From an uncultured Actinomycetota bacterium (GTDB lineage Bacteria; Actinomycetota; Actinomycetes; Mycobacteriales; Mycobacteriaceae), in assembly GCA_963716505.1 (NCBI GenBank), contig CAVQTL010000015.1, forward strand, positions 104,982 to 168,981: DNA of 64,000 nt, given 5' to 3'. Position numbers and translations under genes: made by a program. Shown in pieces: positions 11,138-54,129 of the stretch (within the stretch, counting starts at the first letter, position 1; each line of letters opens with the position of its first letter). The notes beneath the pieces are model-generated. The model was not told where the DNA came from, did no database searches, and saw only the letters and a list, made by a program, of their open reading frames with translations.

Positions 11138-11150
11138 CAGCCCCTCCAGG

Positions 11151-11183
11151 AAGGCCCGCCGGTGAAAGCCGGCGGGCCTTTTT
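11151..11183 (+). terminator. Intrinsic terminator after sigB
   Basis: AAGGCCCGCCGG-TGAAAG-CCGGCGGGCCTT hairpin followed by a T run. Confidence 0.9.
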
Positions 11184-17296: not shown

Positions 17297-18328
17297 ATGA
17301 CAGCGCGAAAGCCACGAAAGCCCAATCTGCGTCCCGTGCGTGAGCTGACGCCCACGTTGCAGTATCGCACCATCCACGGCTACCGGCGCGCGTACCGGGT
17401 CGCCGGATCTGGTCCCGCGATACTGCTGATCCACGGGATCGGCGACAACTCCACCACATGGAGCAGCGTGCAATCCACGCTCGCCCAACGATTCACCGTC
17501 ATCGCCCCCGACCTGCTCGGCCACGGGAAGTCCGACAAGCCGCGCGCCGACTACTCCGTTGCGGCATACGCGAACGGGATGCGCGATCTGCTCAGCGTGC
17601 TCGACATCGAGCGGGTCACGGTGGTCGGGCATTCGCTCGGCGGTGGCGTCGCGATGCAGTTCGCCTACCAGTTCCCGCAATTGGTGGACCGGCTGATCCT
17701 GATCGGTTCGGGCGGGGTGACCAAAGACGTCAACTTCGCGCTTCGGATCGCCTCCCTTCCGATGGGCAGTGAGGCACTGGCGCTGCTGCGGCTGCCGCTG
17801 GTGCTGCCTGCGCTGCAGGCCTTCGGGCGCGTCGCGGGAGTCGCGATCGGCTCAACCGGCCTCGGTCGCGACCTGCCCGACATGCTGCGAATTCTCGAGG
17901 ACCTGCCCGAGCCGACCGCGTCGTCGGCATTCGCCCGCACACTACGTGCCGTCGTCGACTGGCGTGGCCAGGTGGTCACCATGCTGGACCGATGTTATCT
18001 GACGGAATCCGTTCCGGTGCAACTGATCTGGGGCTCGCGCGACTCGGTGATCCCGGCCAGCCACGCACGGCTCGCACACGCCGCAATGCCCGGCTCCCAA
18101 TTGGAGATCTTCGAGGGGTCCGGGCATTTCCCGTTCCACGACGACCCCGACCGCTTCGTGGAAATCGTCGAGCGGTTCATCGACTCGACCGAACCGGCCA
18201 CCCACGACCAGGAGATGCTGCGCAGCCTGCTGCGCAACGGCCGCGATGAGGGTGCACTCTCCGGGTCGATCGACACCCGCGTCGCGGTGCTCGATGCGAT
18301 GGATGCCGACGAACGCAGCGCCACCTGA
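17297..18328 (+). CDS. Alpha/beta hydrolase (Rv2715-like)
   Basis: [27 protein letters not shown]. Confidence 0.92.
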
Positions 18329-20436: not shown

Positions 20437-21151
20437 ATGAGCGAGGACCGCACCGGCACTCAGAACAGCGCAGCAGGCCCTGACCACACCGAGGACCGCC
20501 GCGGACCCGAAAGCCTGACCGAACGGCAGCGCACGATCCTGCAGGTCATTCGCGCCTCGGTGACGACTCGTGGGTATCCCCCGAGCATCAGAGAGATCGG
20601 TGACGCCGTCGGCCTGACGTCCACGTCGTCGGTCGCACATCAGCTGCGAACGCTGGAGCGAAAGGGCTACCTGCGCCGCGATCCGAACCGGCCCCGAGCG
20701 GTCGACGTACGCGGCGCCGACGAGATGGTGGCGCCGATCGTGGGCACCGATGTGGCGGGCTCCGATGCCCTGCCGGAGCCGACGTTCGTGCCCGGTGCTT
20801 GGCCGCATCGCAGCGGGCGGCCCGATCCTCGCCGAAGAGGCTGTCGAGGACGTCTTCCCGCTACCCCGCGAGCTGGTGGGCGAGGGGTCGCTGTTCCTGC
20901 TGAAAGTCGTCGGCGACTCGATGGTCGACGCGGCGATCTGCGACGGCGACTGGGTGGTGATTCGTCAGCAGAACGTCGCCGACAACGGCGATATCGTCGC
21001 GGCGATGATCGACGGCGAGGCCACGGTGAAGACGTTCAAGCGCACCCGCGGCCAGGTATGGCTGATGCCGCACAACCCGGCCTTCGATCCGATTCCCGGC
21101 AACGATGCCGCGGTGCTCGGCAAGGTCGTCACCGTGATCCGGAAGATCTGA
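20437..21151 (+). CDS. lexA: SOS repressor LexA, +1 frameshift at about 20792
   Basis: N-domain LTERQRTIL...[10 protein letters not shown]; peptidase domain [14 protein letters not shown] and ATVK in the next frame; extra C in GTGCCCGGTG; length 715 = 3n+1. Confidence 0.95.
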
Positions 21152-37833: not shown

Positions 37834-37994
37834 CCCGTTGGATCTCGAGGGCATCGAACAGCAGTCCCACACCTACTGACACGACGAGCTGAACTGAGTT
37901 GAACCATCCGGGCCCTTGATTCGTGGCCCAAGTGGCTGGGTGCACTCAGTCACGCAGCCGATCGAATCACGGACACACTCACCGGGGAGTCGTC

Positions 37995-39149
37995 ATGAAT
38001 GTATCGGTCCGTTCGTATCTATCATCGGGCGTCGCAGCCGCCACAGCCACCGTCATCGTCGTGGCGCCCATGGAGGCGCAGACACCCGCCCGGCCCGAGG
38101 CGCCTCCGGTCGCACTCGCCGCACAAGTACAACCGCCACAACTGCCTGCGCTGATCGCCCAGCAGGTCTCTTTCAACACCGGCGTCGCCGTGGACTTCGT
38201 CGTGACCGGGGCGCAGTTGCTCGGTCGCCAAATCCAGGTTGGACAGGCGCTCATCGACGATGTCGGTAATGGCACACCGATTCCCGTCGCAGTCGGACGG
38301 GCGATCGCGGGATTCACGAACATCGAACTGGACGCCGGACGCGAACTCGTCGGCTTCGGCAGGGAGTTGGCGGAGTTCCAGATCCAGTTCTTCGGCAACC
38401 TAGTTTCCCAGCAACTGCCTGCGCTGCTCGCCCAGCAGGTCTCTTTCAACACCGGCGTCGCCGTGGACTTCGTCGTGACCGGGGCGCAGTTGCTCGGTCG
38501 CCAACTCCAGGTTGCAGAGGCGCTCGTCGATGATTTGGGCAATGGCACACCGATACCCGTCGCAGCCGGGCGGGCGGTCGCGGGATTCACGAACATCGAA
38601 CTGGACGCCGGCCGCGAACTCGTGGGCTTCGGCAGGGAGTTGGTGGACTTCCAGATCGAGTTCTTCGGCAACCTGGTTTCCCAGCGGCCTCCGGCCGTCG
38701 CGGCACCTGCGGAGCAGACCCGCGCAGTGAGCGCCGGTACGGTCGACGCCGTCGACGATGTGGCGAATGGCGCCATCGCCCGTCTGGCGCAGGTGGTGAA
38801 TATTCCAGTCGCGCAATCACAGTCACGTCAGACCTCGCGCACTGGGGCCTCTCCCCGAATGGACAACGTAGTGACACTCAGCCGTGAAAAGCCGAAAGCA
38901 ACCGCTGTGGATCGCGACTCGACGAGGACGGCGATGTCGAGTGCCAAGGACACCGTGCGGCGGGTCGCCCACGCGCTACGTGACGGAGTCCGGCGCAATG
39001 GCTCGCCGAGCGCGAGCGACACAGCCGACAGTCCGAATGCGAGCAGCCGGCATCAGCAGTCGCACTCCGACGTCAGCAGGAAGCTTCGACAGTTGCTCGT
39101 CCCGACTAGACCTTCCTGCGCTCGCGTTCGTTGGCCAATGCGACCTTGA
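37995..39149 (+). CDS. Secreted hypothetical protein with a duplicated 91-aa domain
   Basis: Leader [25 protein letters not shown]...VALAA typical of exported proteins in rapid growers; the 3' end overlaps recX, so the true stop is uncertain. Confidence 0.75.
38139..38684 (+). repeat. Tandem 273-bp internal duplication (2 copies)
   Basis: Copies start CAACTGCCTGCGCTG at 38139 and 38412; both encode [30 protein letters not shown]...FFGNLVSQ. Confidence 0.95.
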
Positions 39150-39636
39150 CGACGTCGAGCGCCATTGTCTGGCTGTAGCCGCGCCGGGCCAGCATGCCGA
39201 CCAGCCGCCGGGCCAGCTTGGCGTCGTCGTCGGTGAGCCGTTCGCGGCGCAGTTTGTCGTCGACCAGCTGCTCGGCGCGCTCCCGTTCGGCGCAGGCGTC
39301 GATATCGGCCAGCGCGGCGGTGATCACCTCGTTGTCGACGCCCCTGGTGCGGAGCTCGGCGGCCAAGGCGCGCTTGCCTTTTCCGGCGTTCACCCGACGC
39401 GACCGCACCCACTGCTCGGCGAAGTCGGCGTCGTCGACCAGGCCGACGGCGGTCAACCGGTCGAGTACCTGGGCGCTGACGTCGTCGGGGTAGCCGCGCT
39501 TGGTCAGCTGGCCGGCCAGCTCGGCACGGGTGCGGGCCCTCGCGGTGAGCAGGCGCAGGCAGAGCGCCCGCGCCTGCTCCTCGCGGGAGAGTTCAGCGGA
39601 CTTAGAAGTCAACGGGGGCGGGCAGGACTTCGTCAT
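39106..39636 (-). CDS. recX: RecA regulator RecX
   Basis: [35 protein letters not shown]; overlaps the recA 3' end by 35 bp. Confidence 0.95.
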
Positions 39637-42600
39637 CGGTCACCACTGCGCCAATGCCGAGCTTTTCCTTGATCTTCTTCTCGACCTCGTTGGCGATATC
39701 GACGTTTTCGATCAGGAAGGTGCGGGCGTTCTCCTTGCCCTGGCCCAGCTGCTCGCCCTCGTAGGTGAACCACGAACCGGACTTGCGGATGAAGCCCTGC
39801 TCGACACCCATGTCGATGAGCGAGCCTTCCTTGCTGATGCCCTTGCCATACAGGATGTCGAACTCGGCCTGTTTGAACGGGGGCGAGCAGTTGTGCACGA
39901 CAACCCCTTCCGCGACGAGGTTGTGCAGCTCCTCGACCTCGAGGTCGAACGTCCGTGCCCGCCGCGTTGGCAGCACTTCTCGGATCACCGAGTACCGGAG
40001 TTCCTCGGCCAACACATCACGCAAGAACTTGTCATCCAAGGCATCCGCGAGCGCCTGCACGCGATCCCGGCGGAGACGGCTGGCACCCAGAACCTGCTTC
40101 ATTCCACCACGAGGGTCCCCGGCACCTGCACCGATCATGGCCGCGGCTTCCTGTGCGGTCACGCCACGCTCGTCAAGGTAATTCAGCACGGCATCGGTCA
40201 TCTCAACGGCCAGATATGTCGCCTGCGATCCACGCCGTCGCCCCTGCATGGCTTCTGGAATCGCCTGGGTAAGAGCGATACCACGCGGCCCCCACATGGG
40301 AACCGCTTCCGCGAATGCCGTGACGTTCTCCATACCCGCGACCCGGACCTCGAATATCTGACGCTTGCTCTGGACCCGTCGGCCGTCGATGATGCTCGGC
40401 CGCTTCTGGGTCGGATCGTAGTCTCGAACGGTGCTCACGATGCCGAATCGCAGTAGCAGCCAATGGATCTGGTGTGCGAGCTGTTCAGAGGTCGTTGTGA
40501 AACCGAGCCGAAGCGCCCCGGTTTGTTCCCGGCTCACCCAGCCGTCACTCTCGAGCAGGCCGAAGAGCAGATTGCCGACAACATCGGGAGCGATATCTGG
40601 CTCGAAGAACCAGTTCGGAATCGTCTTCTCCCACGCGAGCTTGCCGTGAATACCGGCCTGCCGGCAAAGGTCGAGAACACCGTTGCGCTCACCAGGTCGA
40701 TGAGCGATCGCAATCGACATACGCCCCTGCGGATGGGCCGCACACCCGAGGGTCGCAGCGATTCGCGTCACGTCATCGATGAGTGCCTGCTGAACATTGA
40801 TGAAGTTGACCGGCGTCTTTCCTCCCACGTAGCCATCGCCTGATCAGATAGCCGAGCAGCCGGGCATGATCCGCGGAAATCGGCGCACTGTCACCGAATC
40901 CATCGAAGCGCCGCGGTTGCGCCACCCGGTCGCCCTTGCGGAGTTCCCCGGCCTGGCGCCAGCCGTACTCTGTCAGCACCTTGTGATCGGGTGTCGCCCA
41001 CACGGTTGCGCCACCGGCGATCCGCAACCCGATCACATCCTGCGTTCCCTGGTCGAACCAGGACACCACGGGCCGTGCATGCAGCGTTCCGTCCTTGGCC
41101 GCAGCCACGGCGTGAATTTGCTTCCGCCCATCGACGACATCCTCAATGCGATGCGTCATACCGGTGACCGGATCGAAGATCCGAGTGCCCTCTGCGAGGC
41201 ACTTGTTCTTGACGACCTTGACCCGGGTACGGTTGCCCACCGCGTCGGTGCCGTCCTTGAGACGTTTCAATTCGCCTGACATCCAAGCGAACTGAGGCGT
41301 AGAACTTCAAAGCCTTTCCGCCCGTTGTTGTTTCGGGCGAGTTATGCACCATAATGCCGTCAGCGAAGTAGTTGTGTGAGCCCTCGACTTCGATATCGAA
41401 TCGATTCATCGACCGAGTGTGCGGCTTAACGTGAACATCGAGCGACCCGCGCCGGCACCAAACGCTGCGTCGGTTCAACGAACTGCGGCGTAACCGATCC
41501 CTGGCCACGGAACCGCGGCAGCAGCTTGTAATCCATTGACGGCGCCATGTACGGCGCAACTATCTCCTGGAACTTCGCCGAGGCATGCGGTTGAGAACAC
41601 CAGCACTGACTTTCCGGCAGCACCTGACTGGCGCAACCGCACATCCAGACCATGGGTATCGCGCAGATAGTCACGCAGCCGCACTCGCGATCCTTCACTC
41701 ATTGCTTCCAGGCAGATCTCGATGCGGCCACTGCCACCCTCTGTGCGCTGCTGCAACCCCTTGGACCGCACGGTGAATGACCCGTCGTCCATGTACCAGA
41801 TGGCCAGAGCCAACGGGGTGAGCGCTTTCAGGTATTCCTCGGAGAGGAACTTCTTGCCGTCACCGAGGTACATCGCACGCTGCAATTCGGCAAGTTCTGG
41901 CAGCGGAGTGAAGTCGACAAACCTTGCGCCTTTTGCGTTTTCGCGGACTGAGTGCTTGATGTTGTCCATCAGTGCTGTTTTCCACTCCAGATATTCGGTC
42001 TGCTTGGCACCGTGTCCCAGCCGGAAACGCACACCGTTGCGGTCGCGACGATTGGGCGACAGGTTCCCGTCACCCATCAGCGAGCCGAGCACCACCTGGA
42101 ACTGCTGATCGCTGAGACGGTGCGGTTCAGCGGCCAACACCCGATCGCCGGCGATCAAGTCGCCGGCCTCGGTCCAGCCGGCCGGGGTGCGGATGAGATG
42201 GTTGGGGGTCGCGGCGAACTGCGACTTGCCGTTACCGCCAGACTTCTCAACCGTGAACTGCAGGAACTGTTTCGCGGGCCCGTTGTTGAACCAGTTCACC
42301 ACCTTGCGGGGAACGATCTGGTCGGTCGCCGGGTCATAGGACAGCACCTCGACGTCCATCTTTTGATTGACAATCTTGCCGATCTTCTCGGTGGTGCCGT
42401 CGGCCAACTGGACGCGAGTGGTGTAACTCACACATCCGAACATGACTCCGATTTTTTCGCGAAGCTGGTTGATGAAGATCGCGGTGGTGCCCGAATTGCT
42501 CAGCGCGCCAGTGATTTTCCGCAGTGCCTGGCTCATCAGCCGGGCCTGCAGGCCGACGTGGCTGTCGCCCATTTCACCCTCGATCTCCGCACGCGGCACC

Positions 42601-43049
42601 AACGCGGCGACCGAGTCGATGACCAGGATGTCCAGCGCGCCGGACCGGATCAGCATGTCGGCGATCTCCAGCGCCTGCTCGCCCGTGTCGGGCTGCGATA
42701 CCAGCAGCGAGTCGGTGTCCACGCCGAGCTTCTTGGCGTACTCCGGGTCCAGCGCGTGCTCGGCGTCGATGAACGCCGCGATGCCGCCGGCCGCCTGTGC
42801 GTTGGCCACCGCGTGCAGCGCGACGGTGGTCTTACCGGAGGACTCCGGGCCGTAGATCTCGACCACCCGGCCGCGCGGCAGCCCGCCGAGCCCGAGCGCG
42901 ACGTCCAGCGCGATCGAGCCGGTGGGGATGACGGAGATCGGCTGGCGCACCTCGTCACCGAGCCGCATCACCGAACCTTTGCCGTGGTTCTTCTCAATCT
43001 GCGCGAGCGCCAGCTCGAGGGCTTTCTCGCGATCAGGGGCCTGCGACAT
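39602..43049 (-). CDS. recA: Recombinase RecA precursor with two inteins; four +1 frameshifts (about 41585, 41444, 41262, 40841)
   Basis: Exteins are 205 aa (43049-42435, GPESSGKTT), 46 aa (41340-41202, SPETTTGG...KNK) and 95 aa (39889-39605, [10 protein letters not shown]...PVDF), totalling 346 aa. Stitched from five track ORFs, each shifted by +1. Confidence 0.96.
39890..41201 (-). mobile_element. RecA intein at the K251 site (M. tuberculosis type), LAGLIDADG homing endonuclease, 437 aa
   Basis: Starts [14 protein letters not shown] after KNK; block B TPDH; LLGYLIGDG and [10 protein letters not shown]; ends TFDLEV...VVHN followed by Cys; 1312 nt = 437 codons + 1. Confidence 0.95.
41341..42434 (-). 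mobile_element. RecA intein at the G205 site (M. leprae type), LAGLIDADG homing endonuclease, 364 aa
   Basis: Starts [13 protein letters not shown] after VMFG; block B TPNH; LGSLMGDG and LAIWYMDDG; ends FDIEV...MVHN followed by Ser; 1094 nt = 364 codons + 2. Confidence 0.95.
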
Positions 43050-43166: not shown

Positions 43167-43189
43167 ACAGTAGACGAACACGTGTTCGA
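43167..43189 (-). promoter_or_regulatory. recA P2: SOS box plus -10 element
   Basis: Minus strand reads TCGAACACGTGTTCGT then C-TACTGT. Confidence 0.85.
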
Positions 43190-43271: not shown

Positions 43272-43601
43272 ATGCACGAAATGGCGATCACGCAGAGTGT
43301 TGTCGACGCGGTGTGTGAGCATGCCGCGGGACGCCGCGTGCACAGCGTGAAGCTCGAGGTCGGCGAGCTGTGCGCAGTGGTCCCCGACTCCATGCTGTTC
43401 TGCTTCGAACTTGCCACCCAGGGCACGGTCGCCGACGGCGCCCTTCTCGATCTCGACGTGCAGCCCGGCGCGGCGCGCTGCCGTACCTGTCGACAGCAGT
43501 TCGAGCTGCACGACCTGATCCTGTTGTGCCCGTGCGGAAGTGCCGACGTCGAAGTGCTGGCCGGCCGCGACCTGCGCATCCTCTCGATGGAAGTGAGCTG
43601 A
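43272..43601 (+). CDS. hypA: Hydrogenase nickel chaperone HypA
   Basis: MHEMAI, CRTC...CPCGS, GRDLRI. Confidence 0.95.
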
Positions 43602-43603
43602 CC

Positions 43604-44416
43604 ATGTGCGCGACATGCGGCTGCGGCGACGACAGCGCCGTCATCACCGTTGCGGGCCACGAGCACGAGCACCACCACGACCACAAGCACGACCACGACG
43701 GCCACACCCACACCGAGACCATCTCGCTGGAGCAGAAGGTTCTACAGAAAAACGATCTGCTCGCCGAGCAGAACCGGCAGTGGCTCGCCGGGCGCGGCAT
43801 CCTCGCGCTCAACGTGACCAGCTCACCCGGCGCGGGCAAGACGACGCTTCTCGAGCGCACCATCCGCGAGTTGACGGCCGACCGGCCCGTCGCCGTCATC
43901 GAAGGCGATCAGGAGACGTTGCTCGACGCCGAACGAATCCGCGCCGCGGGTGCGCGGGCAGTCCAGGTCAACACCGGGGCCGGCTGCCACCTCGACGCCG
44001 ACATGGTGCATCGCGCCCTGCACGCGCTCGCACCGGAATCCGGATCGCTGCTGTTCATCGAGAACGTCGGCAATCTCGTCTGCCCGGCGCTGTTCGATCT
44101 CGGCGAGCACAGCAAAGTGGTGGTCATCTCGGTGACCGAAGGTGCGGATAAGCCGCTCAAGTATCCGCACATGTTCGCCGCGGCGGGTCTCGTCATCATC
44201 AACAAGGTCGATCTGCTGCCGTATGTGGACTTCGATCTGGAGAAGTGCGCTGGCTACGCTCGCTCTGTTAACCCTGGCGTCAATATATTGCCGTTGTCCG
44301 CGACCACCGGTGAGGGTGTCCCGGCGTGGCACGAGTGGATCGATTCGCAGGCAGACGCAACGGCAAGCATATGGATGTCATTAGATTCCGTTGACAAGAC
44401 ATACGCGCCGGAGTAA
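43604..44416 (+). CDS. hypB: Hydrogenase nickel GTPase HypB
   Basis: MCATCGC, His-rich stretch, [29 protein letters not shown]. Confidence 0.96.
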
Positions 44417-44503
44417 ACCGAGAAACTAGCGCTCGAATAGACGGGCGCAAACGTCCATTGTGGCGATGGGGCTCCCAGCCCGGGCCCCGGGAAGCTGTGA
44501 CAC

Positions 44504-45559
44504 ATGCCAACTGAGGCAGCAGTCAAAGCGGAAGAAGCACTGATCCACGTTCTGTGGATCAACGCGGGGTTGAGTTGCGACGGCGATTCTGTGGCGCTGA
44601 CTGCCGCCACCCAACCCAGCATCGAGGAGATCGCCCTTGGCGCGCTCCCCGGCTTGCCGAAAATCGCCGTGCACTGGCCCCTTATCGATTTCGAGTGCGG
44701 ACCGAGCGGGGGGGCGGACGACTTCCTCGGATGGTTCTTCAAGGCCGAGCGGGGAGAATTGGACCCGTTCGTGCTGGTCGTCGAGGGTTCCATCCCGAAC
44801 GAGCAGCTCCACGACGAAGGCTACTGGTGCGGGTTCGGCAACGATCCGGCGACCGGGCAGCCGATGACGACAAGCGAATGGCTGGACCGGCTCGCGCCCA
44901 AGGCCACAGCGATCGTCGCGGTCGGAACCTGCGCGACCTACGGCGGTCTCCACGCCATGGCAGGCAACCCGACCGGAGCCATGGGTGTGCCGGACTATCT
45001 GGGGTGGGACTGGAAGAGCAAGGCGGGCATTCCGATCGTCTGCGTGCCGGGCTGCCCCGCGCATCCGGACAACATGGCCGAGACGCTGACGTACCTGCTC
45101 TACATGGCCACCGAGCAGGCCCCGATGATTCCGCTTGACGATGCGCTGCGACCGAAGTGGCTGTTCGGGGCGACCGTGCACGAGGGCTGTGACCGGGCCG
45201 GCTATTACGAACAAGGCGATTTTGCGACCGAGTACGGCTCGCCGAAATGCATTGTGAAGCTCGGCTGTTGGGGGCCTGTCGTCAAATGCAATGTGCCCAA
45301 GCGCGGCTGGATCAACGGCATCGGTGGGTGCCCGAACGTCGGCGGAATCTGCATCGGCTGCACGATGCCCGGCTTCCCGGACAAGTTCATGCCGTTCATG
45401 GACGAGCCCCCGGGCGGCACGCTCTCGTCGACCGCGTCGGGACTGTATGGGTCTTTGATCCGTCCCCTGCGTGGGATCACCGGGCGCACCCTCGACAAAG
45501 AACCGAAGTGGCGCCACCCCGGTAAGAAACTCGAAACCGGAGCGACCCGCACCTGGTAG
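44504..45559 (+). CDS. hhyS: Group 1h [NiFe]-hydrogenase small subunit
   Basis: No Tat signal; LSCDGDS (Asp in place of the second proximal-cluster Cys), GTCATYGG, VPGCPAHP, HEGCDRAG, CIVKLGCWGP, GGICIGC. Confidence 0.93.
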   Translation: MPTEAAVKAEEALIHVLWINAGLSCDGDSVALTAATQPSIEEIALGALPGLPKIAVHWPLIDFECGPSGGADDFLGWFFKAERGELDPFVLVVEGSIPNEQLHDEGYWCGFGNDPATGQPMTTSEWLDRLAPKATAIVAVGTCATYGGLHAMAGNPTGAMGVPDYLGWDWKSKAGIPIVCVPGCPAHPDNMAETLTYLLYMATEQAPMIPLDDALRPKWLFGATVHEGCDRAGYYEQGDFATEYGSPKCIVKLGCWGPVVKCNVPKRGWINGIGGCPNVGGICIGCTMPGFPDKFMPFMDEPPGGTLSSTASGLYGSLIRPLRGITGRTLDKEPKWRHPGKKLETGATRTW

Positions 45560-45650
45560 GCGGGTCGCTTCGGCGCACACGGCGGGCGTTGGCCCGGTTT
45601 GGCGAAATGCCCTGTGGCGCAGTGGACCCCAGATAGAGAGAGAATTTGCG

Positions 45651-47447
45651 ATGACAACGATCATCCCCGAGCCGTCACACGTCAAGCGCGATCCCGGCCA
45701 GCTTGTCGAGATGGCATGGGATCCCATCACCCGAATCGTCGGCAGCCTCGGCATCTACACCAAGATCGACTTCGAGAACAAAGAAGTCGTCGAGTGCCAC
45801 AGCACGTCGTCGATCTTCCGTGGCTACTCGATCTTCATGAAGGGCAAGGACCCCCGCGACGCCCACTTCATCACCAGCCGCATCTGCGGCATCTGCGGAG
45901 ACAACCACTGCACGTGTTCCTGCTATTGCCAGAACATGGCGTACGGCGTCAAGCCGCCGCACCTCGGTGAGTGGCTGATCAATCTCGGCGAAGCCGCGGA
46001 ATACATGTTCGACCACAACATCTTCCAAGAAAACCTGGTCGGCGTGGACTACTGCGAGAAGATGGTGTCGGAGACCAATCCCGGCGTGCTGGCCAAGGCC
46101 GAGAACACGCAGGCACCGAATGCCGAGGCGCACGGCTACCGGACGATCGCCGAGATAATGCGTGCACTCAATCCGTTCACGGGCGAGTTCTACCGCGAGG
46201 CGCTGCAGGTCAGCCGGTGGACGCGAGAGATGTTCTGCCTCATGGAAGGCCGCCACGTCCATCCGTCCACGCTGTATCCGGGCGGCATCGGCACCACCGC
46301 GACCATTCAGCTGATGACCGACTACATGTCGCGGCTGATGCGCTATGTCGAGTTCATGAAGAAGGTCGTGCCGATGCACGACGACCTGTTCGACTTCTTC
46401 TATGAAGCGCTGCCCGGTTACGACCAGGTGGGGCTTCGCCGCACCCTGCTCGGCTGCTGGGGCTCGTTCCAGGACCCCGAGGTCTGCAACTTCGATTACA
46501 AGGACATGGAGGCGTGGGGCAACGCCATGTTCGTCACGCCCGGCGTGGTGATCGACGGCAAGCTGCACACCCACTCGCTTGTGGACATCAACCTCGGCAT
46601 CCGAATCTTGTTGGGCCACTCGTATTACGACGACTGGACCGATCAGGAGATGTTCGTCAAGACCGACCCGCTGGGCAATCCGATTGATCGGCGCCATCCG
46701 TGGAACCAGCACACCAACCCGCGTCCGCAGAAGCGTGACCTCGACGGTAACTACAGCTGGGTGATGTCCCCACGCTGGTTCGACGGCACGGACCATTTGG
46801 CGCTGGATACCGGCGGCGGCCCGCTGGCCCGGCTCTGGTCGACGGCACTGGCCGGCCTGGTCGACATCGGCTACGTCAAGGCCACCGGCAACAGCGTGCA
46901 GATCAACCTGCCGAAGACCGCGCTCAAGGGCCCGGTTTCGCTGGAGTGGAAGGTGCCGCAGTACGGCAGCAACACGATCGAGCGCAACCGCGCCCGCACG
47001 TACTTCCAGGCCTACGCCGCCGCATGCGCACTGCATTTCGCCGAGAAGTCTCTGGTCGAGATCCGCGCAGGCCGCACGAAGACGTGGGAGAAGTTCGACG
47101 TGCCCAAGGAGGGCATCGGCTGCGGGTTCACCGAGGCGGTGCGCGGAGTGCTCAGCCACCACATGGTCATCCGCGACGGCAAGATCGCGAACTACCATCC
47201 GTACCCGCCGACACCGTGGAACGCGAATCCACGCGACAGCTACGGCACGCCCGGCCCGTACGAGGACGCTGTTCAGGGTCAGCCGATCTTCGAGGAGAAC
47301 GATCGAGAGCACTTCAAGGGCATCGACATCATGCGCACGGTGCGCAGCTTCGATCCGTGCCTGCCCTGCGGTGTGCACATGTATCTGGGCAAGGGGAAGA
47401 CGCTGGAGAGGTTGCACTCCCCCACCCAATCCGTCACCGGGGAATGA
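45651..47447 (+). CDS. hhyL: Group 1h [NiFe]-hydrogenase large subunit
   Basis: L1 SRICGICGDNH, L2 SFDPCLPCGVH, EAVRGVLSH. Confidence 0.95.
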   Translation: MTTIIPEPSHVKRDPGQLVEMAWDPITRIVGSLGIYTKIDFENKEVVECHSTSSIFRGYSIFMKGKDPRDAHFITSRICGICGDNHCTCSCYCQNMAYGVKPPHLGEWLINLGEAAEYMFDHNIFQENLVGVDYCEKMVSETNPGVLAKAENTQAPNAEAHGYRTIAEIMRALNPFTGEFYREALQVSRWTREMFCLMEGRHVHPSTLYPGGIGTTATIQLMTDYMSRLMRYVEFMKKVVPMHDDLFDFFYEALPGYDQVGLRRTLLGCWGSFQDPEVCNFDYKDMEAWGNAMFVTPGVVIDGKLHTHSLVDINLGIRILLGHSYYDDWTDQEMFVKTDPLGNPIDRRHPWNQHTNPRPQKRDLDGNYSWVMSPRWFDGTDHLALDTGGGPLARLWSTALAGLVDIGYVKATGNSVQINLPKTALKGPVSLEWKVPQYGSNTIERNRARTYFQAYAAACALHFAEKSLVEIRAGRTKTWEKFDVPKEGIGCGFTEAVRGVLSHHMVIRDGKIANYHPYPPTPWNANPRDSYGTPGPYEDAVQGQPIFEENDREHFKGIDIMRTVRSFDPCLPCGVHMYLGKGKTLERLHSPTQSVTGE

Positions 47448-47450
47448 CAT

Positions 47451-48371
47451 ATGCCGCATCGCCCGGACAATCCCGAACAAGACGCGCAGTGGCGCACGGC
47501 GGGCGATCGGATACAGAACCTCCTCGACGCCAGCGCAGTCGGTGGCGCCGTCGCGCGCGAGCGTGCGGAGCAGCTGGTCGGTGAGGTAACCGACCTCTAC
47601 GGCGCCGGCCTCGAGCGGATATTCACTATGGCTGTCCAAGCACAGCCCACGCTCGCGGACGCATTGGTGGCCGACAACCTCATCGCCAGCCTGCTGCTGG
47701 TGCACGGCTTGCATCCGCACGATGTTGAGCGGCGGATCGAGGACGCGCTGGACAGCGTGCGGCCCTACCTCGGGTCCCATGGCGGCGACGTCCATCTCCT
47801 CGAGGTCGACGAGCAGGTTGTTCGGTTGCAGTTCGCTGGCAGCTGCAAGAGCTGTCCGTCGTCGTCGGTCACCCTCGAGCTGGCCGTCGAGGACGCCGTA
47901 CGCGCTGCAGCACCGGAGATTTCGTCGATTGAGGTGGTGACCGCGGACGCGGATGCCAAACCGGCCGCGGTGATTCCGGCGGACAGCCTGATGAGCCGCG
48001 TACGCACGCAACCGCAAGGGCATATGTGGCATCCAGTGCCCGACATCGCCGAACTCGCGCCGGGAGAGGTCGGTGGGTTCGCGGTCGCGGGCACCACCGT
48101 GCTGGCCTGCCGACTCGACGACCGGCTGTTCGCTTACCGGGACCGCTGCGGAGCGTGCGGTGAGTCGCTCGCGGGCGCGGTGCTGCATCGGCGGCTGGGT
48201 TCGGCCGACGCCGTGCTGCGGTGCCCACGCTGCCATGCGCATTTCGACGTCGTGCACGCGGGTGCCTGCGTCGACGGGAACGGCTCTGCCCAGGCCCATC
48301 TCGAGCCGGTACCGCTGTTGGAGCGCGACGGAGTCCTTTCGATGGCGGTCGCCGAGGCGGTGGCGTCATGA
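47451..48371 (+). CDS. hhyE: NifU/NfuA-like plus Rieske-like Fe-S protein
   Basis: VRPYLGSHGGD, GSCKSCPSS (CxxC), then CGAC...CPRCHAHF; position matches the M. smegmatis hhy operon as I recall it. Confidence 0.8.
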   Translation: MPHRPDNPEQDAQWRTAGDRIQNLLDASAVGGAVARERAEQLVGEVTDLYGAGLERIFTMAVQAQPTLADALVADNLIASLLLVHGLHPHDVERRIEDALDSVRPYLGSHGGDVHLLEVDEQVVRLQFAGSCKSCPSSSVTLELAVEDAVRAAAPEISSIEVVTADADAKPAAVIPADSLMSRVRTQPQGHMWHPVPDIAELAPGEVGGFAVAGTTVLACRLDDRLFAYRDRCGACGESLAGAVLHRRLGSADAVLRCPRCHAHFDVVHAGACVDGNGSAQAHLEPVPLLERDGVLSMAVAEAVAS

Positions 48372-49000
48372 CGGGTGCGTATGACGTCCTGGCTCGTATC
48401 CGTGCTGCCAGGACGGCGCCACAGCCGGCAGGCGAACGGTGCGAGATGTGTTCGGAGTCGATCGCCGACGAGCACCAGCATGTGGTGAATGTCGAAGGCA
48501 GACAATTGATGTGCGTCTGCCGAGGGTGCTACCTGCTGTTCTCCGACGAACAGGCCGAGTTGCGCTATCGCGCCGTCCCCGACCGCTATCTCGTCTTCCC
48601 GGGCTTCGCGCTGGACCGGCGGCACTGGGAGGTGCTCCAGATACCGGTGGGGCTCGCGTTCATCTTCCGGAACTCGGCGCTGGACCGGACCGTGGCGTTC
48701 TACCCAGGTCCTGCAGGAGCGACAGAATCGGAGCTCGACCTGGCGGCCTGGAACGATATCCGCGCAGCCGACCCGCGGGTGGAGATGCTCGCCGACGACA
48801 CCGAGGCCGTCCTGGTGCGGGTGCCCGACGACGAAACCGCCGCGCCGCAGAGCTATCTGCTGCCCATCGACGCGTGTTACGAGTTCGTGGGCCGGCTGCG
48901 GATGTTGTGGCACGGCTTCGACGGCGGACAGCAGGTGCGGGAGTTCATCGACGAGTTCTTTGCCCTACTCGACGAACGCAGCAAGGTCGTCGCGAGATGA
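48368..49000 (+). CDS. Hydrogenase-associated hypothetical protein (DUF5947-like)
   Basis: CEMC...HQH...CVCRGC; FYPGPAGATES; PIDACYEFVG. Confidence 0.85.
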   Translation: MTGAYDVLARIRAARTAPQPAGERCEMCSESIADEHQHVVNVEGRQLMCVCRGCYLLFSDEQAELRYRAVPDRYLVFPGFALDRRHWEVLQIPVGLAFIFRNSALDRTVAFYPGPAGATESELDLAAWNDIRAADPRVEMLADDTEAVLVRVPDDETAAPQSYLLPIDACYEFVGRLRMLWHGFDGGQQVREFIDEFFALLDERSKVVAR

Positions 49001-49641
49001 CAGATGTCACGTTCGCCGTCGTCGAGGTTGAGCCGGAGCCCTATGCGGTCACCCCGATTCTGAACGCGCGACTGGGCATTGCAGCGGTCGGCGACGATCC
49101 CATCCACGCGATCGCGTTGCGCTGCCAGGTCCGCATCGAACCCATGCGACGCGGCTACTCCGAGGACGAGGGAGCGGGTCTGGTCGACTTGTTCGGGCCG
49201 CGGGAACGGTGGGCGACCACGATGCACAACTTTCAGTGGCTGCAGACCACCGCGATGGTGCAGGGATTCAGCGGCGCCACCCAGGTCAATCTCCCGCTGG
49301 AGTGCACATATGACTTCGAGGTGGCGGCCTCGAAGTATCTGCACGCCCTGCGGGACGGCGCGGTGCCGCTGCAATTCCTGTTCAGCGGAACGGTCTTCTC
49401 AAAGGGCTCGCGCGGCTTCGCGGTGCAGCAGGTGCCGTGGGATCGAGAGGACCGCTTCGAGATGCCGGTGTCGGTGTGGCGGGACCTGATGCAATCGCAC
49501 TATCCGAACACCGGTTGGCTGCGGCTGGACCAAAACACCATCGACGCCCTTGTGGCGTACCGTTCGGCGCGCGGTCTTCTCTCTCTCGACGATGCGGTCA
49601 CCACGCTCCTTGCGGCCAGCTCGACCGAGGAGCTCCGATGA
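48997..49641 (+). CDS. Hydrogenase-associated hypothetical protein (DUF6084-like)
   Basis: IALRCQVRIEP, DLFG..ERW..T, LECTYDFEV, FLFSGTVF, VPWDRE. Confidence 0.85.
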   Translation: MTDVTFAVVEVEPEPYAVTPILNARLGIAAVGDDPIHAIALRCQVRIEPMRRGYSEDEGAGLVDLFGPRERWATTMHNFQWLQTTAMVQGFSGATQVNLPLECTYDFEVAASKYLHALRDGAVPLQFLFSGTVFSKGSRGFAVQQVPWDREDRFEMPVSVWRDLMQSHYPNTGWLRLDQNTIDALVAYRSARGLLSLDDAVTTLLAASSTEELR

Positions 49642-50981
49642 CCGCCGACTGGGTTCGCGCCCGCGCCGTCGCCGACGCGGTGCTCTACGAGGGCTATCTG
49701 CTGTACCCCTATCGCGCCAACTCACGAAAGAACCAGACGCGCTGGCAGTTCGGGGTGCTCGGGCCCTCCGGCGCCGCCGAAGCCGGCATCGGCGAAGACG
49801 ACTCGCTGTCCGCACAGGTCATCGTCGCGCCGCGGACAAGGCCGACGGTGTCGGTCGTGGTGCGCTTTCTGCAGCTGCAACACCGCGGCGTCGAGAAGGA
49901 TGTGGGCGACGGCCGCTTCGAACCGGTCGAAGAGCTGGTGGCGGGATCGCAATCCTGGCTGCGGTGGGACGAGGCCATCGAACGCGAGATCTCGTTCGGA
50001 CCGCTCGACATCGAATCGGGTCTGCCGCAAACGCTTCCGATCGAGATCGACGCGGGCACCGACATCGAGACGGTCGATGGCGGAATCCTGGTCCGCACCC
50101 GTCGAGCGTTACGGGCACGGCTGAAGATCGCCGCGGAACGCGACGACGGGTTTGTCCGCCTCACGATGACGGTGCACAACACCGCTGCGTCCGCCACGGA
50201 CAAAGACGAAGCGATCGCTGTGTCACTCATCGGCACGCACCTCGTCGCCGAAGTCGCAGGCGGCGACTTCGTGTCCCTACTCGAACCACCGGCGTCGGCC
50301 GACAGCGCAGTCGCCAGGTGCCGGCACCACCGCTGCTTCCCGGTGTTGGCCGGACCGCCCGGCGACCATGCGCTGGTACTGGTTTCGCCGATCATCCTGT
50401 ACGACCACCCGGAGATTGCCGAGCAGAGCGAGGGCGCGCTGTACGACTCGACCGAGATCGACGAGATCCTCACACTGCGCATCATGACGATGACCGACGA
50501 GGAGAAGTCGGCGGCCCGCGCCACCGATCCGCTCGCCGCGCAGATCATCGACCGGTGTGACTCGATGTCGCCCGAGGCGTTGCTGAACCTGCACGGCGTG
50601 CTGCGCAATCCGCACGCCGTCGACGACTCCGCGGGCCTGATCCCCGAAGTACCCGAGGGCGTGGACTGGTGGGACCCGTTGGCCGACAACGCCGTCGCAC
50701 CCGATATCGACGCCGTGCTGGTCAATGGCATGCGGGTGAGCCGAGGTAGCCGCGTGCGGCTGCACCCGGCACGCCGGGCCGATGCGCAAGACCTGTTCTT
50801 CGCGGACAAGATCGCACGTGTCACCTCGGTGCACGAAACCGTGGACGGAGACCAACACGTCGGCGTGGTCATCGAGGACGACCCTGCCGCCGACCTGCAC
50901 GAGTGGTACGGCCGCTACCTGTACTTCGCACCCGATGAGGTCGAACCGTTGAGTGAAAGGAATCCGAAATGCAAGCAGTAG
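49638..50981 (+). CDS. Hydrogenase-associated hypothetical protein
   Basis: DAVLYEGYLLYPYR, RWQFG, SPIILYDHP, DSTEIDEILTLR; translationally coupled to both neighbours. Confidence 0.87.
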   Translation: MTADWVRARAVADAVLYEGYLLYPYRANSRKNQTRWQFGVLGPSGAAEAGIGEDDSLSAQVIVAPRTRPTVSVVVRFLQLQHRGVEKDVGDGRFEPVEELVAGSQSWLRWDEAIEREISFGPLDIESGLPQTLPIEIDAGTDIETVDGGILVRTRRALRARLKIAAERDDGFVRLTMTVHNTAASATDKDEAIAVSLIGTHLVAEVAGGDFVSLLEPPASADSAVARCRHHRCFPVLAGPPGDHALVLVSPIILYDHPEIAEQSEGALYDSTEIDEILTLRIMTMTDEEKSAARATDPLAAQIIDRCDSMSPEALLNLHGVLRNPHAVDDSAGLIPEVPEGVDWWDPLADNAVAPDIDAVLVNGMRVSRGSRVRLHPARRADAQDLFFADKIARVTSVHETVDGDQHVGVVIEDDPAADLHEWYGRYLYFAPDEVEPLSERNPKCKQ

Positions 50982-51088
50982 GTGTCACGGCCACCGTCAT
51001 AGCGGGCGTCATTGTGCTCGGTGCAGTTGTGATAGGCGTCCGCTCGCTGCCAGATCTGCAGCGGTACCTCAAGATTCGGCGCATGTAG
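50969..51088 (+). CDS. 39-aa single-TM protein missing from the ORF track
   Basis: MQAVGVTATVIAGVIVLGAVVIGVRSLPDLQRYLKIRRM*; GAAAGG RBS; overlaps the upstream stop. Confidence 0.75.
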   Translation: MQAVGVTATVIAGVIVLGAVVIGVRSLPDLQRYLKIRRM

Positions 51089-51092
51089 GCGA

Positions 51093-51586
51093 TTGCGAGG
51101 TGGTATCACGTCCCAGATTCTGGTAGCCGGTATCGGCAACATCTTCCTCGGCGACGACGGATTCGGACCCGAGGTGATGCGGCACGTACCCGAACATGTC
51201 GCGGGCCTGCGAGTCCGAGTGGTGGATTACGGAATCCGAGGCATGCACCTGGCCTACGACCTGCTCGACGGCTGCGACGCGTTGGTGCTCGTCGACGCCC
51301 TGCCCAACCGCGGGTCGCCGGGCACCCTGCACGTCTTCGAGGCCGATCATGAAACGCTCTCGGCGGGAGTCGGTTTAGATGCCCACGCGATGGATCCCGC
51401 CGCCGTGTTCGCCAGCCTCGCCGCGCTCGGCGGGAGGCGCCGTACACCGTCGTGATCGGTTGTGAGGTGGACGATATCGACGAACGGATGGGCTTGTCCG
51501 CTGCCGTCGCTGCTACCGTCCCCGACGCCGTGAAGGCGATCGAAGAAGTCGTCGGCCGCCTCGTCAATGATGCGAAGGTCGGCTGA
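51093..51586 (+). CDS. Hydrogenase maturation protease (HupD/HybD family), -1 frameshift at about 51437
   Basis: GIGNIFLGDDGFG, LVDA, LDAHAMDP; tail PYTVVIGCE...GLSAAV in another frame; length 494 = 3n+2; exact start uncertain. Confidence 0.85.
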
Positions 51587-51589
51587 ACC

Positions 51590-51844
51590 ATGTGTCTCGG
51601 AATACCCGGCCGGGTCGTCCAGATGCTGGATGGCTATGGCGGCCAACTGGCCCTTGTCGACGTGGCGGGCGAGAACCGCAAGGTCAACATCGGCATGATG
51701 CCGGAGGAGACATTCGCACCGGGTGACTGGGTGATCATCCACATGGGCTTCGTCGTCGAGAAGACCGACGAGGCGGGCGCCGACGCCGCCATGGCTGGCC
51801 TCAAGATGATGGGCAGCGGCGAGGATTTCGGGGAGTCACGATGA
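51590..51844 (+). CDS. hypC: Hydrogenase chaperone HypC, copy 1
   Basis: MCLGIPG, GDWVIIHMGF. Confidence 0.93.
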   Translation: MCLGIPGRVVQMLDGYGGQLALVDVAGENRKVNIGMMPEETFAPGDWVIIHMGFVVEKTDEAGADAAMAGLKMMGSGEDFGESR

Positions 51845-54129
51845 CCGGGCGGCGCCGGTTGCGGGTTTGCGTGCGGGGCGTCGTACAGGGCGTCGGTTTC
51901 CGGCCGTTCGTCTACACGTGTGCCGCTGCACATGCACTAAGCGGCTCCGTGCGTAACGACAGCTCCGGCGCGATCATCGAGATCGAAGGCGAAGCAACGG
52001 ATCTCGACGATTTCCTGGCCGGGCTCACGCATCGCGCCCCGCCGCTCGCTGTCATCGAATCCGTTGAGACGCAGGAAATCCCCGTCGTCGGCGGCACCGG
52101 CTTCGTGATCGCCGATACGTCGCGGTCCGACGGCGGCCGCACGCTCACCTCACCCGACGTCGCCATGTGCGCCGAGTGCGCAGCAGAACAGCGTGACCCG
52201 GCGAACCGGCGTTACCGGCACGCCTTCGTCAACTGCACCAACTGCGGTCCACGGTTCACCATCATCGCCTCGCTGCCCTATGACCGCGCGAACACCACGA
52301 TGGCCCCGTTCCCGATGTGCGCGGACTGCGCGCGCGAATACCACGATCCGGCCGATCGGCGGTTCCACGCCCAGCCGATCTGCTGCCCGAACTGCGGGCC
52401 GACACTGAGATACCGGACCGGCGACGACGGCATGACCGAAGGCGAAACGGCGCTGCGCCACGCCCGGCAATTGCTGCGCGACGGCGGCATCCTCGCCGTC
52501 AAAGGCCTCGGCGGCTACCACCTGGCCTGCGATGCCGACAACGAGTCCGCGGTCGCAGAGCTGCGGCACCGCAAGCGACGCGGAGACAAACCGTTCGCGG
52601 TGATGGTGCCCGGCCTGGCCACCGCGCACCGCATCGCCGCCGTCGACAAAGCGTCGGAACGGTTGCTTGCCGGCCCGCAGCGTCCTATCGTGCTGATGCC
52701 CCGGTCGGCGGGCGCACCAGTCGCCGCATCGGTCGCACCTCACAACCCCGATCTCGGTGTGATGCTCGCCTACACGCCGCTGCACACCCTGCTGTTCGGC
52801 CTGACCGAGGACAAACCGGGACCGTCCGTACTGGTGATGACATCGGGGAATCTCGGTGGCGAGCCGATCTGCTTCGCCGACGACGATGCGCTCGAACGGC
52901 TTTCGCATCTCGCCGACGGCTGGCTGATGCACGACCGAGCCATCCTTGTGCCGTGCGATGACTCGGTGGTGCGGGTCGTTGACGCCATGGAGCTGCCCAT
53001 CAGGCGCTCCCGCGGCTATGCGCCGATGCCGGTGGCGCTTCCGGTGCCGGTGCCATCGACGCTGGCCGTCGGCGGCGATCTCAAGAACACGTTTGCCGTC
53101 GCCGACCGGAAGTACGCCTGGCTGAGCCAGCACATCGGCGATATGGACGACCTGGCCACGTTGTCGGCGTTCGACTCCGCCGAACGGCAACTCGAATCGT
53201 TGACCGGCGTCGCCCCGGAAATCGTTGTCGCGGACTCACATCCGGGCTATCGGTCCACTGAGTGGGCGCAGCGCAATGCCGGCGAGCGACCGGTCCGATC
53301 GGTACAGCACCATCACGCACACATCGCCGCTGTGATGGCCGAGCACGGGTTGGACGGGTCACAGCGCGTGCTCGGCTTCGCGTTCGACGGAACCGGCTAC
53401 GGATCCGACGGGGCGATCTGGGGCGGCGAAGTGCTGCTGGCCGACTACAAGGGCTATCAGCGGCTGGCGCACCTGAAGTACGTTCCATTGGCCGGTGGCG
53501 ACGTCGGCGTGCTGCGGCCCTACCGGATGGCGCTGTCACATCTGTGGGCTGCCGGCCTTGACTGGGACGGCGCTCTCCCACCGGTGCGCGCATGCCCCGG
53601 TGACGAGCGCCGAATACTGCTGCACCAGCTCGAGACCGGGCTCGGCTGCGCGCCGACATCCAGCATGGGCCGGCTTTTCGACGCGGTGTCATCGCTGGTC
53701 GGCGTCCGGCAGACCGTCGCATACGAGGCCCAGGCGGCCATTGAGCTTGAAGGCATCAGCCGCGACCGTGACGCCGGTGGAGCCACGTATTCCTTCGACG
53801 TCGACGACGGCCAGTCACCGGCGGTCATCGACCCGGCTCCCGTTATCGCGGCGGTCGTCGCCGACATCCGCGCCGGCGTTGCGCAGGGGGTCATCGGAGC
53901 AAAGTTCCATCGCGCGGTCGCCGATCTGGTCGTCGACCTCGCAGCGATCGAGGACACCGGCGGCCAACCGATCGCGTTGTCCGGCGGAGTGTTCCAGAAC
54001 GTGTTGCTGCTGCGGCTGGTGCTGGACGGCCTTCGGGCCAAGGGATACCGGGTGATCACCCACCGTCTTGTTCCGCCCAACGACGGCGGTATCGCACTTG
54101 GACAGCTTCTGGTCGGGACGGCGGGGTAG
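51841..54129 (+). CDS. hypF: Carbamoyltransferase HypF
   Basis: GVVQGVGFRP, Zn fingers CAEC/CTNC/CADC/CPNC, HHHAH, DGTGYG, PNDGGIALGQ. Confidence 0.97.
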   Translation: MTGRRRLRVCVRGVVQGVGFRPFVYTCAAAHALSGSVRNDSSGAIIEIEGEATDLDDFLAGLTHRAPPLAVIESVETQEIPVVGGTGFVIADTSRSDGGRTLTSPDVAMCAECAAEQRDPANRRYRHAFVNCTNCGPRFTIIASLPYDRANTTMAPFPMCADCAREYHDPADRRFHAQPICCPNCGPTLRYRTGDDGMTEGETALRHARQLLRDGGILAVKGLGGYHLACDADNESAVAELRHRKRRGDKPFAVMVPGLATAHRIAAVDKASERLLAGPQRPIVLMPRSAGAPVAASVAPHNPDLGVMLAYTPLHTLLFGLTEDKPGPSVLVMTSGNLGGEPICFADDDALERLSHLADGWLMHDRAILVPCDDSVVRVVDAMELPIRRSRGYAPMPVALPVPVPSTLAVGGDLKNTFAVADRKYAWLSQHIGDMDDLATLSAFDSAERQLESLTGVAPEIVVADSHPGYRSTEWAQRNAGERPVRSVQHHHAHIAAVMAEHGLDGSQRVLGFAFDGTGYGSDGAIWGGEVLLADYKGYQRLAHLKYVPLAGGDVGVLRPYRMALSHLWAAGLDWDGALPPVRACPGDERRILLHQLETGLGCAPTSSMGRLFDAVSSLVGVRQTVAYEAQAAIELEGISRDRDAGGATYSFDVDDGQSPAVIDPAPVIAAVVADIRAGVAQGVIGAKFHRAVADLVVDLAAIEDTGGQPIALSGGVFQNVLLLRLVLDGLRAKGYRVITHRLVPPNDGGIALGQLLVGTAG

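Follow-up and report, generated by a model that had tools for sequence, protein, structure and literature searches.

Known RecA inteins and the recA locus of this study

Inteins in mycobacterial RecA have been described at two positions. Site a (residues 252-691) is occupied in the Mycobacterium tuberculosis complex, and site b (residues 206-569/570) is occupied in M. leprae, M. xenopi, M. thermoresistibile, JDM601, M. rhodesiae, and one M. canettii strain (Topilina et al. 2015, Table 1, PMC4513877). The same 2015 survey lists the RecA of Thermobifida fusca with inteins at sites b and c2; its mycobacteria are either a-only or b-only, and no organism in the table has a and b together (PMC4513877). 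The subject of this report is a recA gene in which both of these sites are filled. It lies on the minus strand at 43049-39602 of a stretch of 64,000 nucleotides (nt), here called the window, from contig CAVQTL010000015.1 of an uncultured member of the Mycobacteriaceae. The gene was first noticed in a sequence-only reading of this DNA, whose account of the literature (single RecA inteins in mycobacteria, two in T. fusca) agrees with the 2015 table.

Work on splicing in mycobacteria provides the remaining points of reference. Conditional splicing of the M. tuberculosis RecA intein has been reported in its native host (PMC11377839), and the two inteins of M. smegmatis DnaB have been found to splice at very different rates and to respond differently to stress (PMC6195587). 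The interpretation favored here, to which we assign a probability of roughly 0.75, is that the window carries the genuine recA of an uncultured, soil-type, Mycobacterium-like actinomycete, that this gene is interrupted at the two classic sites by two independent, selfish class-1 inteins, and that the breaks in its reading frame are errors of the assembly consensus.

Organization of the recA gene

As assembled, recA cannot be translated. The listing of open reading frames (ORFs) and the three-frame translation show it spread over five ORF fragments, with a coding frame that steps 0>1>2>0>1, equivalent to four +1 shifts. Once four single bases are removed, the fragments are stitched into one recA frame of 1147 codons, in which the sole stop is terminal. 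This frame reads as RecA residues 1-205, a first intein of 364 amino acids (aa), a middle extein of 46 aa, a second intein of 437 aa, and a final 95 aa of RecA; one of the four frame breaks falls within the middle extein. The parts are as follows.

39602..43049, minus strand: recA precursor gene, 1147 aa plus stop after removal of four extra bases
42435..43049, minus strand: RecA N-extein, aa 1-205, ending ...KIGVMFG in loop L2 (stitched translation, Pfam, PDB)
41341..42434, minus strand: intein 1, at RecA site b, 364 aa, with two extra bases inside (Pfam, published site-b coordinates)
41202..41340, minus strand: middle extein, 46 aa, SPETTTGG...VKVVKNK, with one extra base inside (stitched translation)
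39890..41201, minus strand: intein 2, at RecA site a, 437 aa, with one extra base inside the first LAGLIDADG motif (alignment to PDB 2IMZ, Pfam)
39605..39889, minus strand: RecA C-extein, 95 aa, CSPPFKQ...PVDF (Pfam RecA_C)
39602..39604, minus strand: recA stop codon (stitched translation)

The precursor of 1147 aa is predicted to yield a spliced RecA of 346 aa. This product matches the Pfam family RecA with an E-value of 4.7e-142, in addition to RecA_C, and its top single-copy matches in the PDB are the RecA proteins of M. smegmatis and M. tuberculosis. The 64-kb window contains only this one recA and no intein copies beyond these two. The two-intein anatomy is thus confirmed as it was first described, with hallmarks far above chance level: the ORF listing, the translation and the stitching return numbers identical to those of the sequence-only reading, including its precursor of about 1147 aa, and the insertion sites it gave, G205/S and K251/C, agree with published RecA sites b and a. 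Its further point, that two splicing events are required to obtain RecA from such a precursor, is supported as well. The recA of the window encodes a RecA of the multi-intein kind, its inteins being of the known site-a and site-b types.

The two inteins

Intein 1 occupies precursor residues 206-569, with junctions VMFG/CVSY...MVHN/SPETT that provide Cys1, a His-Asn end, and Ser+1. Its block B is TPNH (within ATPNHLI), and the Asp of block F lies in RFDIEVEG. A full-length match to the Pfam family LAGLIDADG_2 (1.7e-39) is nested in Intein_splicing; run end to end, Intein_splicing itself scores 31.8 bits, under the cut-off of 35.8 bits. The two LAGLIDADG motifs read LGSLMGDGN and AIWYMDDGS. By these sequence hallmarks (blocks A, B, F, and G, and the +1 residue) intein 1 is assigned to class 1. 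Its G+C content, 0.58-0.59, is lower than the 0.62-0.69 of the flanks.

The site-b inteins of the double-intein genes fall into at least two lineages, one beginning CVSY, CFNY, or CMSY (the type of the window) and one beginning CGSWYT, and these are only 64-70% identical. The CGSWYT type, at 67-70% identity in mycobacterial genes, is found at the Mycobacterium-labelled loci L011, L016, and L019 beside a site-a intein that is 88-91% identical to that of the window, and at the Haloechinothrix locus L046 beside a site-a intein that is 77% identical. The existence of the two lineages points to independent acquisition at site b.

Intein 2 has the junctions VKNK/CLAEGT...VVHN/CSPPF, with Cys1, a His-Asn end, and Cys+1. 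Its block B, TPDH (within ATPDHKV), lines up with the corresponding motif of PI-MtuI, the RecA intein of M. tuberculosis, and the Asp of block F lies in TFDLEVEE. When residues 1-110 and 380-437 are compared with PI-MtuI in PDB 2IMZ, 158 of 168 positions are identical (~94%, E 9.9e-93). Intein_splicing scores 52.1 bits end to end on intein 2, and Pfam LAGLIDADG_3 is found in two stretches between the splicing halves. There are two LAGLIDADG motifs, the first of which is LLGYLIGDG; as in intein 1, their conserved acidic residues are in place, and the Asp residues of these motifs are presumably catalytic in PI-MtuI. Judged by sequence, intein 2 is a class-1 intein and an allele of PI-MtuI.

In some relatives the site-a intein lacks ~710 nt of the endonuclease domain (runs X2 and X4, with the joint 40138>40872, and the proteins P0072 and P0078, of 912 aa). 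These natural mini-inteins of the PI-MtuI type suggest that the endonuclease has been lost in some lineages.

Occurrence of the double-intein layout

A protein search with the stitched precursor returned intact 1147-aa precursors at 89-94% identity (P0001-P0005), a protein of 1157 aa at 84% identity (P0006, named by NCBI 'intein-containing recombinase RecA [Mycobacterium sp.]'), and dozens more matches in Haloechinothrix, Nocardioidaceae, Streptosporangiaceae, and Actinomycetota. Junctions could be read in 117 of the best 120 clusters from this search. By the signatures HN/SPET and KNK/C[LV]A, site a is occupied in all 117 and site b is occupied too in 81 of them; the middle extein measures 46 aa in every one of the 117.

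The species-representative genomes of GTDB were then covered at the DNA level with a double-junction pattern consisting of HN/SPETT, a fixed spacer, and VKNK/C-[L/V]-A. At least 63 of these genomes have the a+b layout. (The figure is a lower bound, because frameshifted copies, that of the window included, cannot match the pattern.) Four of the 63 are labelled Mycobacterium, namely three Mycobacterium sp. metagenome-assembled genomes (MAGs) and Candidatus Mycobacterium methanotrophicum, and the 63 also include the cultured strains Haloechinothrix alba DSM 45207, Plantactinospora sp. B6F1, and Plantactinospora sp. WMMB334. At the DNA level, the recA matches in the MAGs L026, L051, L017, and L047 share 84-90% identity with the window.

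These counts make the layout a common one, and databases already annotate it. In papers it appears to be undescribed; none on an a+b double-intein RecA was found in the literature searched. The rarity that the sequence-only reading had implied does not survive these counts (intact a+b precursors are plentiful, in 81 of 117 readable clusters and 63 GTDB species genomes, four of them Mycobacterium-labelled). That reading had also allowed that double occupancy might turn out to be both common and described, of which the junction counts bear out the first half and the literature searched does not bear out the second.

Other arrangements are present among the relatives. Five proteins of 1498-1642 aa (P0009, P0011, P0024, P0057, and P0063) are triple-intein RecAs whose third intein lies near residue 71-77, in the P-loop at site c2, and the loci L038, L055, L058, and L061 are also among these c2 + b + a cases; no paper describing a triple-intein RecA was found in the literature searched. 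At the other extreme, soil metagenome relatives with an empty site a or b (runs X1, X3, X23, and X25) show the joints 39880>41202 and 41334>42435. The first leaves out 1321 nt and has 9 unmatched letters between its two sides, the second leaves out 1100 nt and has 6, and these sizes correspond to intein 2 and intein 1, respectively. Homing targets coexist with occupied alleles in soil metagenomes.

Given such diversity, the a+b arrangement of the window might be an assembly chimera, in which an intein-1-only allele and an intein-2-only allele of co-occurring strains were joined across the 139 nt of the middle extein. Soil metagenomes are indeed rich in related recA variants, some of them empty at either site; single-intein relatives (783 aa) exist at 93-94% identity; and the frame breaks sit around the junction region. 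A chimera is nevertheless scarcely credible. The closest relatives (L001, L002, L003, L026, L044, and L051), which were assembled independently, have intact a+b genes, as do cultured isolates; the flanks of the window are collinear with those of its closest relatives, and the intein-extein junctions of the stitched precursor are clean.

The frame breaks in recA

Relative to three intact relatives of 3444 nt, which are 89-91% identical, the only indels in the window recA are four insertions of 1 nt, all within 750 bp. Further relatives agree that these are the sole indels (four to six relatives in all).

41585..41586, minus strand: frame break 1, in intein 1, GC[AT]GCC; relatives have GCC/GCA/GCG/GCT (Ala)
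41443..41444, minus strand: frame break 2, in intein 1, GT[CG]CTC; relatives have GTT/GTG/GTC/ATC
41262..41263, minus strand: frame break 3, in the middle extein, AC[GT]CTC; relatives have ACC/ACA/ACG (Thr)
40841..40842, minus strand: frame break 4, in intein 2, AT[CA]GGC; relatives have ATC GGG; between Ile and Gly of LLGYLI/GDG

These insertions share an unusual signature. In no case is the inserted base a copy of one next to it. All four fall at third codon positions at which the relatives differ, and dropping either of the two adjacent bases leaves a synonymous codon. A random insertion in recA would fit this signature with a probability of 0.27, so that four out of four has a probability of ~0.005, and five out of five, when the insertion at 35805 in an unrelated gene with the same synonymous-doublet signature is counted, ~0.001. 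At each break the assembly seems to have retained the two alleles of a synonymous third-position polymorphism one after the other. Natural mutation would not be expected to favour synonymous sites, whereas a consensus drawn from mixed alleles would, those sites being the polymorphic ones; the four breaks are therefore most likely consensus errors of the assembly, and recA would be intact in the organism. Contigs from eight public runs were aligned to recA; all derive from relatives, and they span breaks 3 and 4 only. At break 3, all reported contigs over the site, from five independent public runs, have one base fewer, and at break 4, contigs from two public runs omit one base at 40838. The insertion of the inteins into their host, broken by four +1 shifts as assembled, is in frame in all close relatives.

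Programmed frameshifting or read-through was considered as well but rejected, because a stop at 41475-41477 closes frame 0, the sequence context is neither slippery nor conserved, and the relatives do not have the extra bases.

Were the frameshifts real, recA would be a pseudogene that had acquired one insertion and then three more, in a strain that lacks RecA and perhaps also LexA-controlled SOS; the organism would then be a natural recA/lexA-defective environmental mycobacterium. The frame is disrupted, as in a pseudogene, but neither relaxed selection nor further decay accompanies the disruption. Substitutions on the window lineage in recA number 65 synonymous to 27 non-synonymous, and 30 to 16 downstream of the first break, similar to the ratios in intact relatives (73:38, 67:35, and 94:28), where neutral decay would give ~1:3. 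In the comparison with intact relatives, the window lineage has no nonsense codons and no deletions in recA. A real pseudogene is hard to reconcile with these data, because it would have gained four independent indels without any neutral decay; that all four are non-duplicating 1-nt insertions at synonymous third positions is a further argument against it.

The remainder of the window bears on the same question. Frameshifts were surveyed by tblastn with ORFs from syntenic contigs, since a plot of third-position G+C and a heuristic based on stop-to-stop ORFs were too noisy. Four were found outside recA.

12452-12455 (at 12454), minus strand: +1 in the gene for a 372-aa protein, codon G/S/E in relatives (syntenic contigs)
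~20790-20795 (~20792), plus strand: +1 in lexA, CC>CCC, GTGCCCGGTG vs GTG-CCGGTG in L067 (relative L067)
35805, plus strand: +1 GGG/A (GG[GA]) in the gene for an SBP_bac_3 solute-binding protein (syntenic contigs)
~51433, plus strand: -1 in hycI, the hydrogenase maturation protease gene (syntenic contigs)

This corresponds to about one break per 10 kb of the window compared, and such breaks in unrelated housekeeping-type genes also argue against a specific decay of recA. Apparent frame changes at ~11145-11180 and ~13860 proved to be indels in intergenic DNA, and an ORF pair that resembled a split gene (16262-17263 and 17297-18328) is two separate genes. The lexA insertion lies in a homopolymer and splits that gene into two frames; it is more likely an assembly error than a true loss. 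The same gene, recA, is also broken in other long-contig MAGs. Nine of the 63 GTDB a+b loci (L005, L009, L010, L017, L031, L036, L040, L049, and L059) have matches split over two or three frames in recA, eight of them in MFD-named MAGs and one in a MAG with a 3.0-Mb contig. The MFD genomes are, we assume, long-read assemblies, and assemblies of this kind seem to go wrong repeatedly at intein-bearing recA.

Several observations weigh against consensus errors and an intact, functional recA. The four recA breaks lie in 3.4 kb, as against about four in the other ~40 kb compared; only ~0.34 would be expected (Poisson P ~4e-4), an excess of ~12x over background. A dead gene would explain this clustering naturally, although strain heterogeneity at mobile inteins would also explain it if the breaks are artefacts. 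The frameshift in lexA would fit a real loss of the SOS system. In a search of run indexes for reads of the strain itself, the best public runs contain 0.11 of the recA words and 0.32 of those of the neighbouring hydrogenase region, so this strain is in none of the public runs searched and no reads of it contradict the assembly, and breaks 1 and 2 are spanned by no related contig in the eight runs. In addition, we infer the doublet origin of the insertions from their pattern, and the splicing competence of the inteins and the independence of their two reactions from their sequence. On balance, a recA pseudogene is considered unlikely, and the coincidence of breaks in lexA and recA could be misread as loss of SOS.

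Selection, history and predicted splicing

Ratios of non-synonymous to synonymous substitution (dN/dS) were obtained by the Nei-Gojobori method for the corrected window recA against four relatives, with the endonuclease domains included. The exteins give 0.05-0.09, intein 1 gives 0.04-0.10, and intein 2 gives 0.07-0.24; the range within the endonuclease domains is 0.04-0.24. Because dN/dS is low in both inteins, endonuclease domains included, both are evidently under purifying selection. Measured against L026, intein 2 has a synonymous divergence (dS) of 0.12-0.18, compared with 0.33 in the exteins and 0.76-0.83 in intein 1, which indicates that the histories of the inteins differ from that of the host gene and from each other. 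Taken together, the lower G+C, the distinct dS values, the two site-b lineages, and the empty alleles fit a picture of two independently mobile selfish elements.

For such a gene, the following path to RecA may be proposed. The recA gene would be transcribed from an SOS-type promoter and translated into the 1147-aa precursor, from which each intein would excise itself by the standard four-step reaction. An N-S acyl shift at Cys1 would come first, followed by trans-esterification by Ser+1 in the case of intein 1 or Cys+1 in the case of intein 2; the terminal Asn would then cyclise, and a final acyl shift would produce the peptide bond. The three exteins would thus be joined into the 346-aa RecA, with the 46-aa piece acting as the C-extein of intein 1 and as the N-extein of intein 2. 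At the DNA level, the LAGLIDADG domains would spread the inteins into empty alleles. Since neither intein depends on residues other than those at its own junctions, two independent splicing reactions, each with its own rate, are to be expected by default, as shown for the inteins of M. smegmatis DnaB (PMC6195587).

A different proposal takes up an idea of the sequence-only reading: the two inteins would form an adaptive, post-translational two-input gate on RecA, in which an order of splicing is imposed through the shared 46-aa extein and SOS induction and recombination are tied to two environmental signals. The splicing of PI-MtuI, reported to be conditional in the native host (PMC11377839), the different stress responses of two inteins within one mycobacterial protein (PMC6195587), and the purifying selection on the a+b pair in many lineages are all in keeping with such a gate. 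The sequence, however, demands no order, as each intein has complete catalytic blocks; the inteins have separate histories, seen both in the dS values against L026 and in the at least two site-b lineages that accompany the same site-a intein; alleles with one intein or none are common; and both inteins have kept their endonuclease domains, which fits selfish mobility. This renders an adaptive gate quite improbable. A stricter version, in which a and b have been kept together in more than 60 actinobacterial species as a coupled gate and one splicing reaction depends on prior removal of the other intein through the 46-aa extein (from the end of loop L2 to KNK), is very improbable; if true, RecA activity would integrate two different stress signals. 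By analogy with the systems cited, a regulatory role of splicing as such is conceivable.

The neighbourhood of recA

The window and its closest contigs share one gene order: a hyp/[NiFe]-hydrogenase cluster, hypA, recA, recX, an ABC (ATP-binding cassette) transporter, and miaB. The features next to recA are as follows.

39106..39636, minus strand: recX, intact, 176 aa, sharing 35 nt with the 3' end of recA, the same in L001-L003 (ORF, synteny)
43176..43187, no strand assigned: palindrome GAACACGTGTTC, 127 nt upstream of the recA start (pattern match)
43272-52000, plus strand: complete [NiFe]-hydrogenase cluster, directly upstream of recA and divergent from it (same order in the closest soil contigs)

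The palindrome has the form of the mycobacterial LexA (SOS) box, GAAC-N4-GTTC. Its pattern has two matches in the window, against ~1 expected by chance, and the argument for it is one of position rather than count. The hydrogenase cluster contains hypA, hypB, the small and large subunits, a NifU-like gene, DUF5947/DUF6084, hycI, hypC, and hypF. An Rfam scan of the 64-kb window for rRNA or other markers gave no matches, and exact protein searches with its RecX and HypA found neither of them on record.

An ORF of 408 aa that adjoins recX (37923-39149, plus strand) contains an internal tandem duplication of ~90 aa, in which FFGNLVSQ occurs twice, and its 293-aa homologue in L001 matches it twice. 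The repeat may be lineage-specific or an assembly duplication.

Implications

The RecA intein of the M. tuberculosis type is not peculiar to the tubercle bacilli. It is widespread in soil Actinomycetota, where it usually lies 46 residues downstream of an intein of the M. leprae type, a distribution not mentioned in the intein papers searched. Genes with the a+b layout provide natural material on whether neighbouring inteins splice independently, and a means of following the M. tuberculosis intein back to its source. For assemblies of mixed populations, the 'synonymous doublet' signature may help to flag consensus errors. With regard to this contig, recA is due to be annotated as a gene with both inteins, and the assembly needs polishing and a warning of frameshift errors in recA, lexA, hycI, and two more genes.

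Comparison with known systems

The RecA of T. fusca YX is like that of the window in that two splicing events are needed and one intein is at site b. Its second intein, however, is at the P-loop site c2 rather than at site a, and from the published coordinates the two are 132 aa apart as opposed to 46 aa in the window RecA. M. smegmatis DnaB, with DnaBi1 and DnaBi2, resembles the window RecA as an essential mycobacterial protein of DNA metabolism that carries two inteins, and it is the best studied model of such a pair. The host protein differs, and of the two DnaB inteins one is a class-3 mini-intein that has no endonuclease, whereas both inteins of the window RecA are full-length and of class 1.

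Each intein also has its own described counterparts. The site-b RecA inteins of M. leprae, M. xenopi, M. thermoresistibile, JDM601, and others share with intein 1 the insertion point G205/S and the length of 364 aa, and they are likewise class-1 inteins with a LAGLIDADG endonuclease; the comparison of intein 1 with the M. leprae RecA intein is by site and length only. Intein 2 and PI-MtuI have in common the KNK/C insertion point, Cys1, the His-Asn end, Cys+1, and two LAGLIDADG motifs. They differ in length, 437 aa for intein 2 and 440 aa for PI-MtuI, as three residues are missing from intein 2 just past the first LAGLIDADG motif; this gap is common to its closest relatives, and L016 has an insertion there instead. 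They also differ in setting. PI-MtuI is the sole intein of RecA in the M. tuberculosis complex, whereas intein 2 is found in a soil actinomycete as the second intein in the same protein.

Also close are the unpublished a+b precursors in public databases, such as the 1157-aa protein of Mycobacterium sp. and the Haloechinothrix alba 'protein RecA' of 1152 aa. These have the same architecture as the window recA, with the same 46-aa middle extein and the same junction peptides; they differ from it in being intact ORFs, whereas the copy in the window is interrupted by four +1 breaks.

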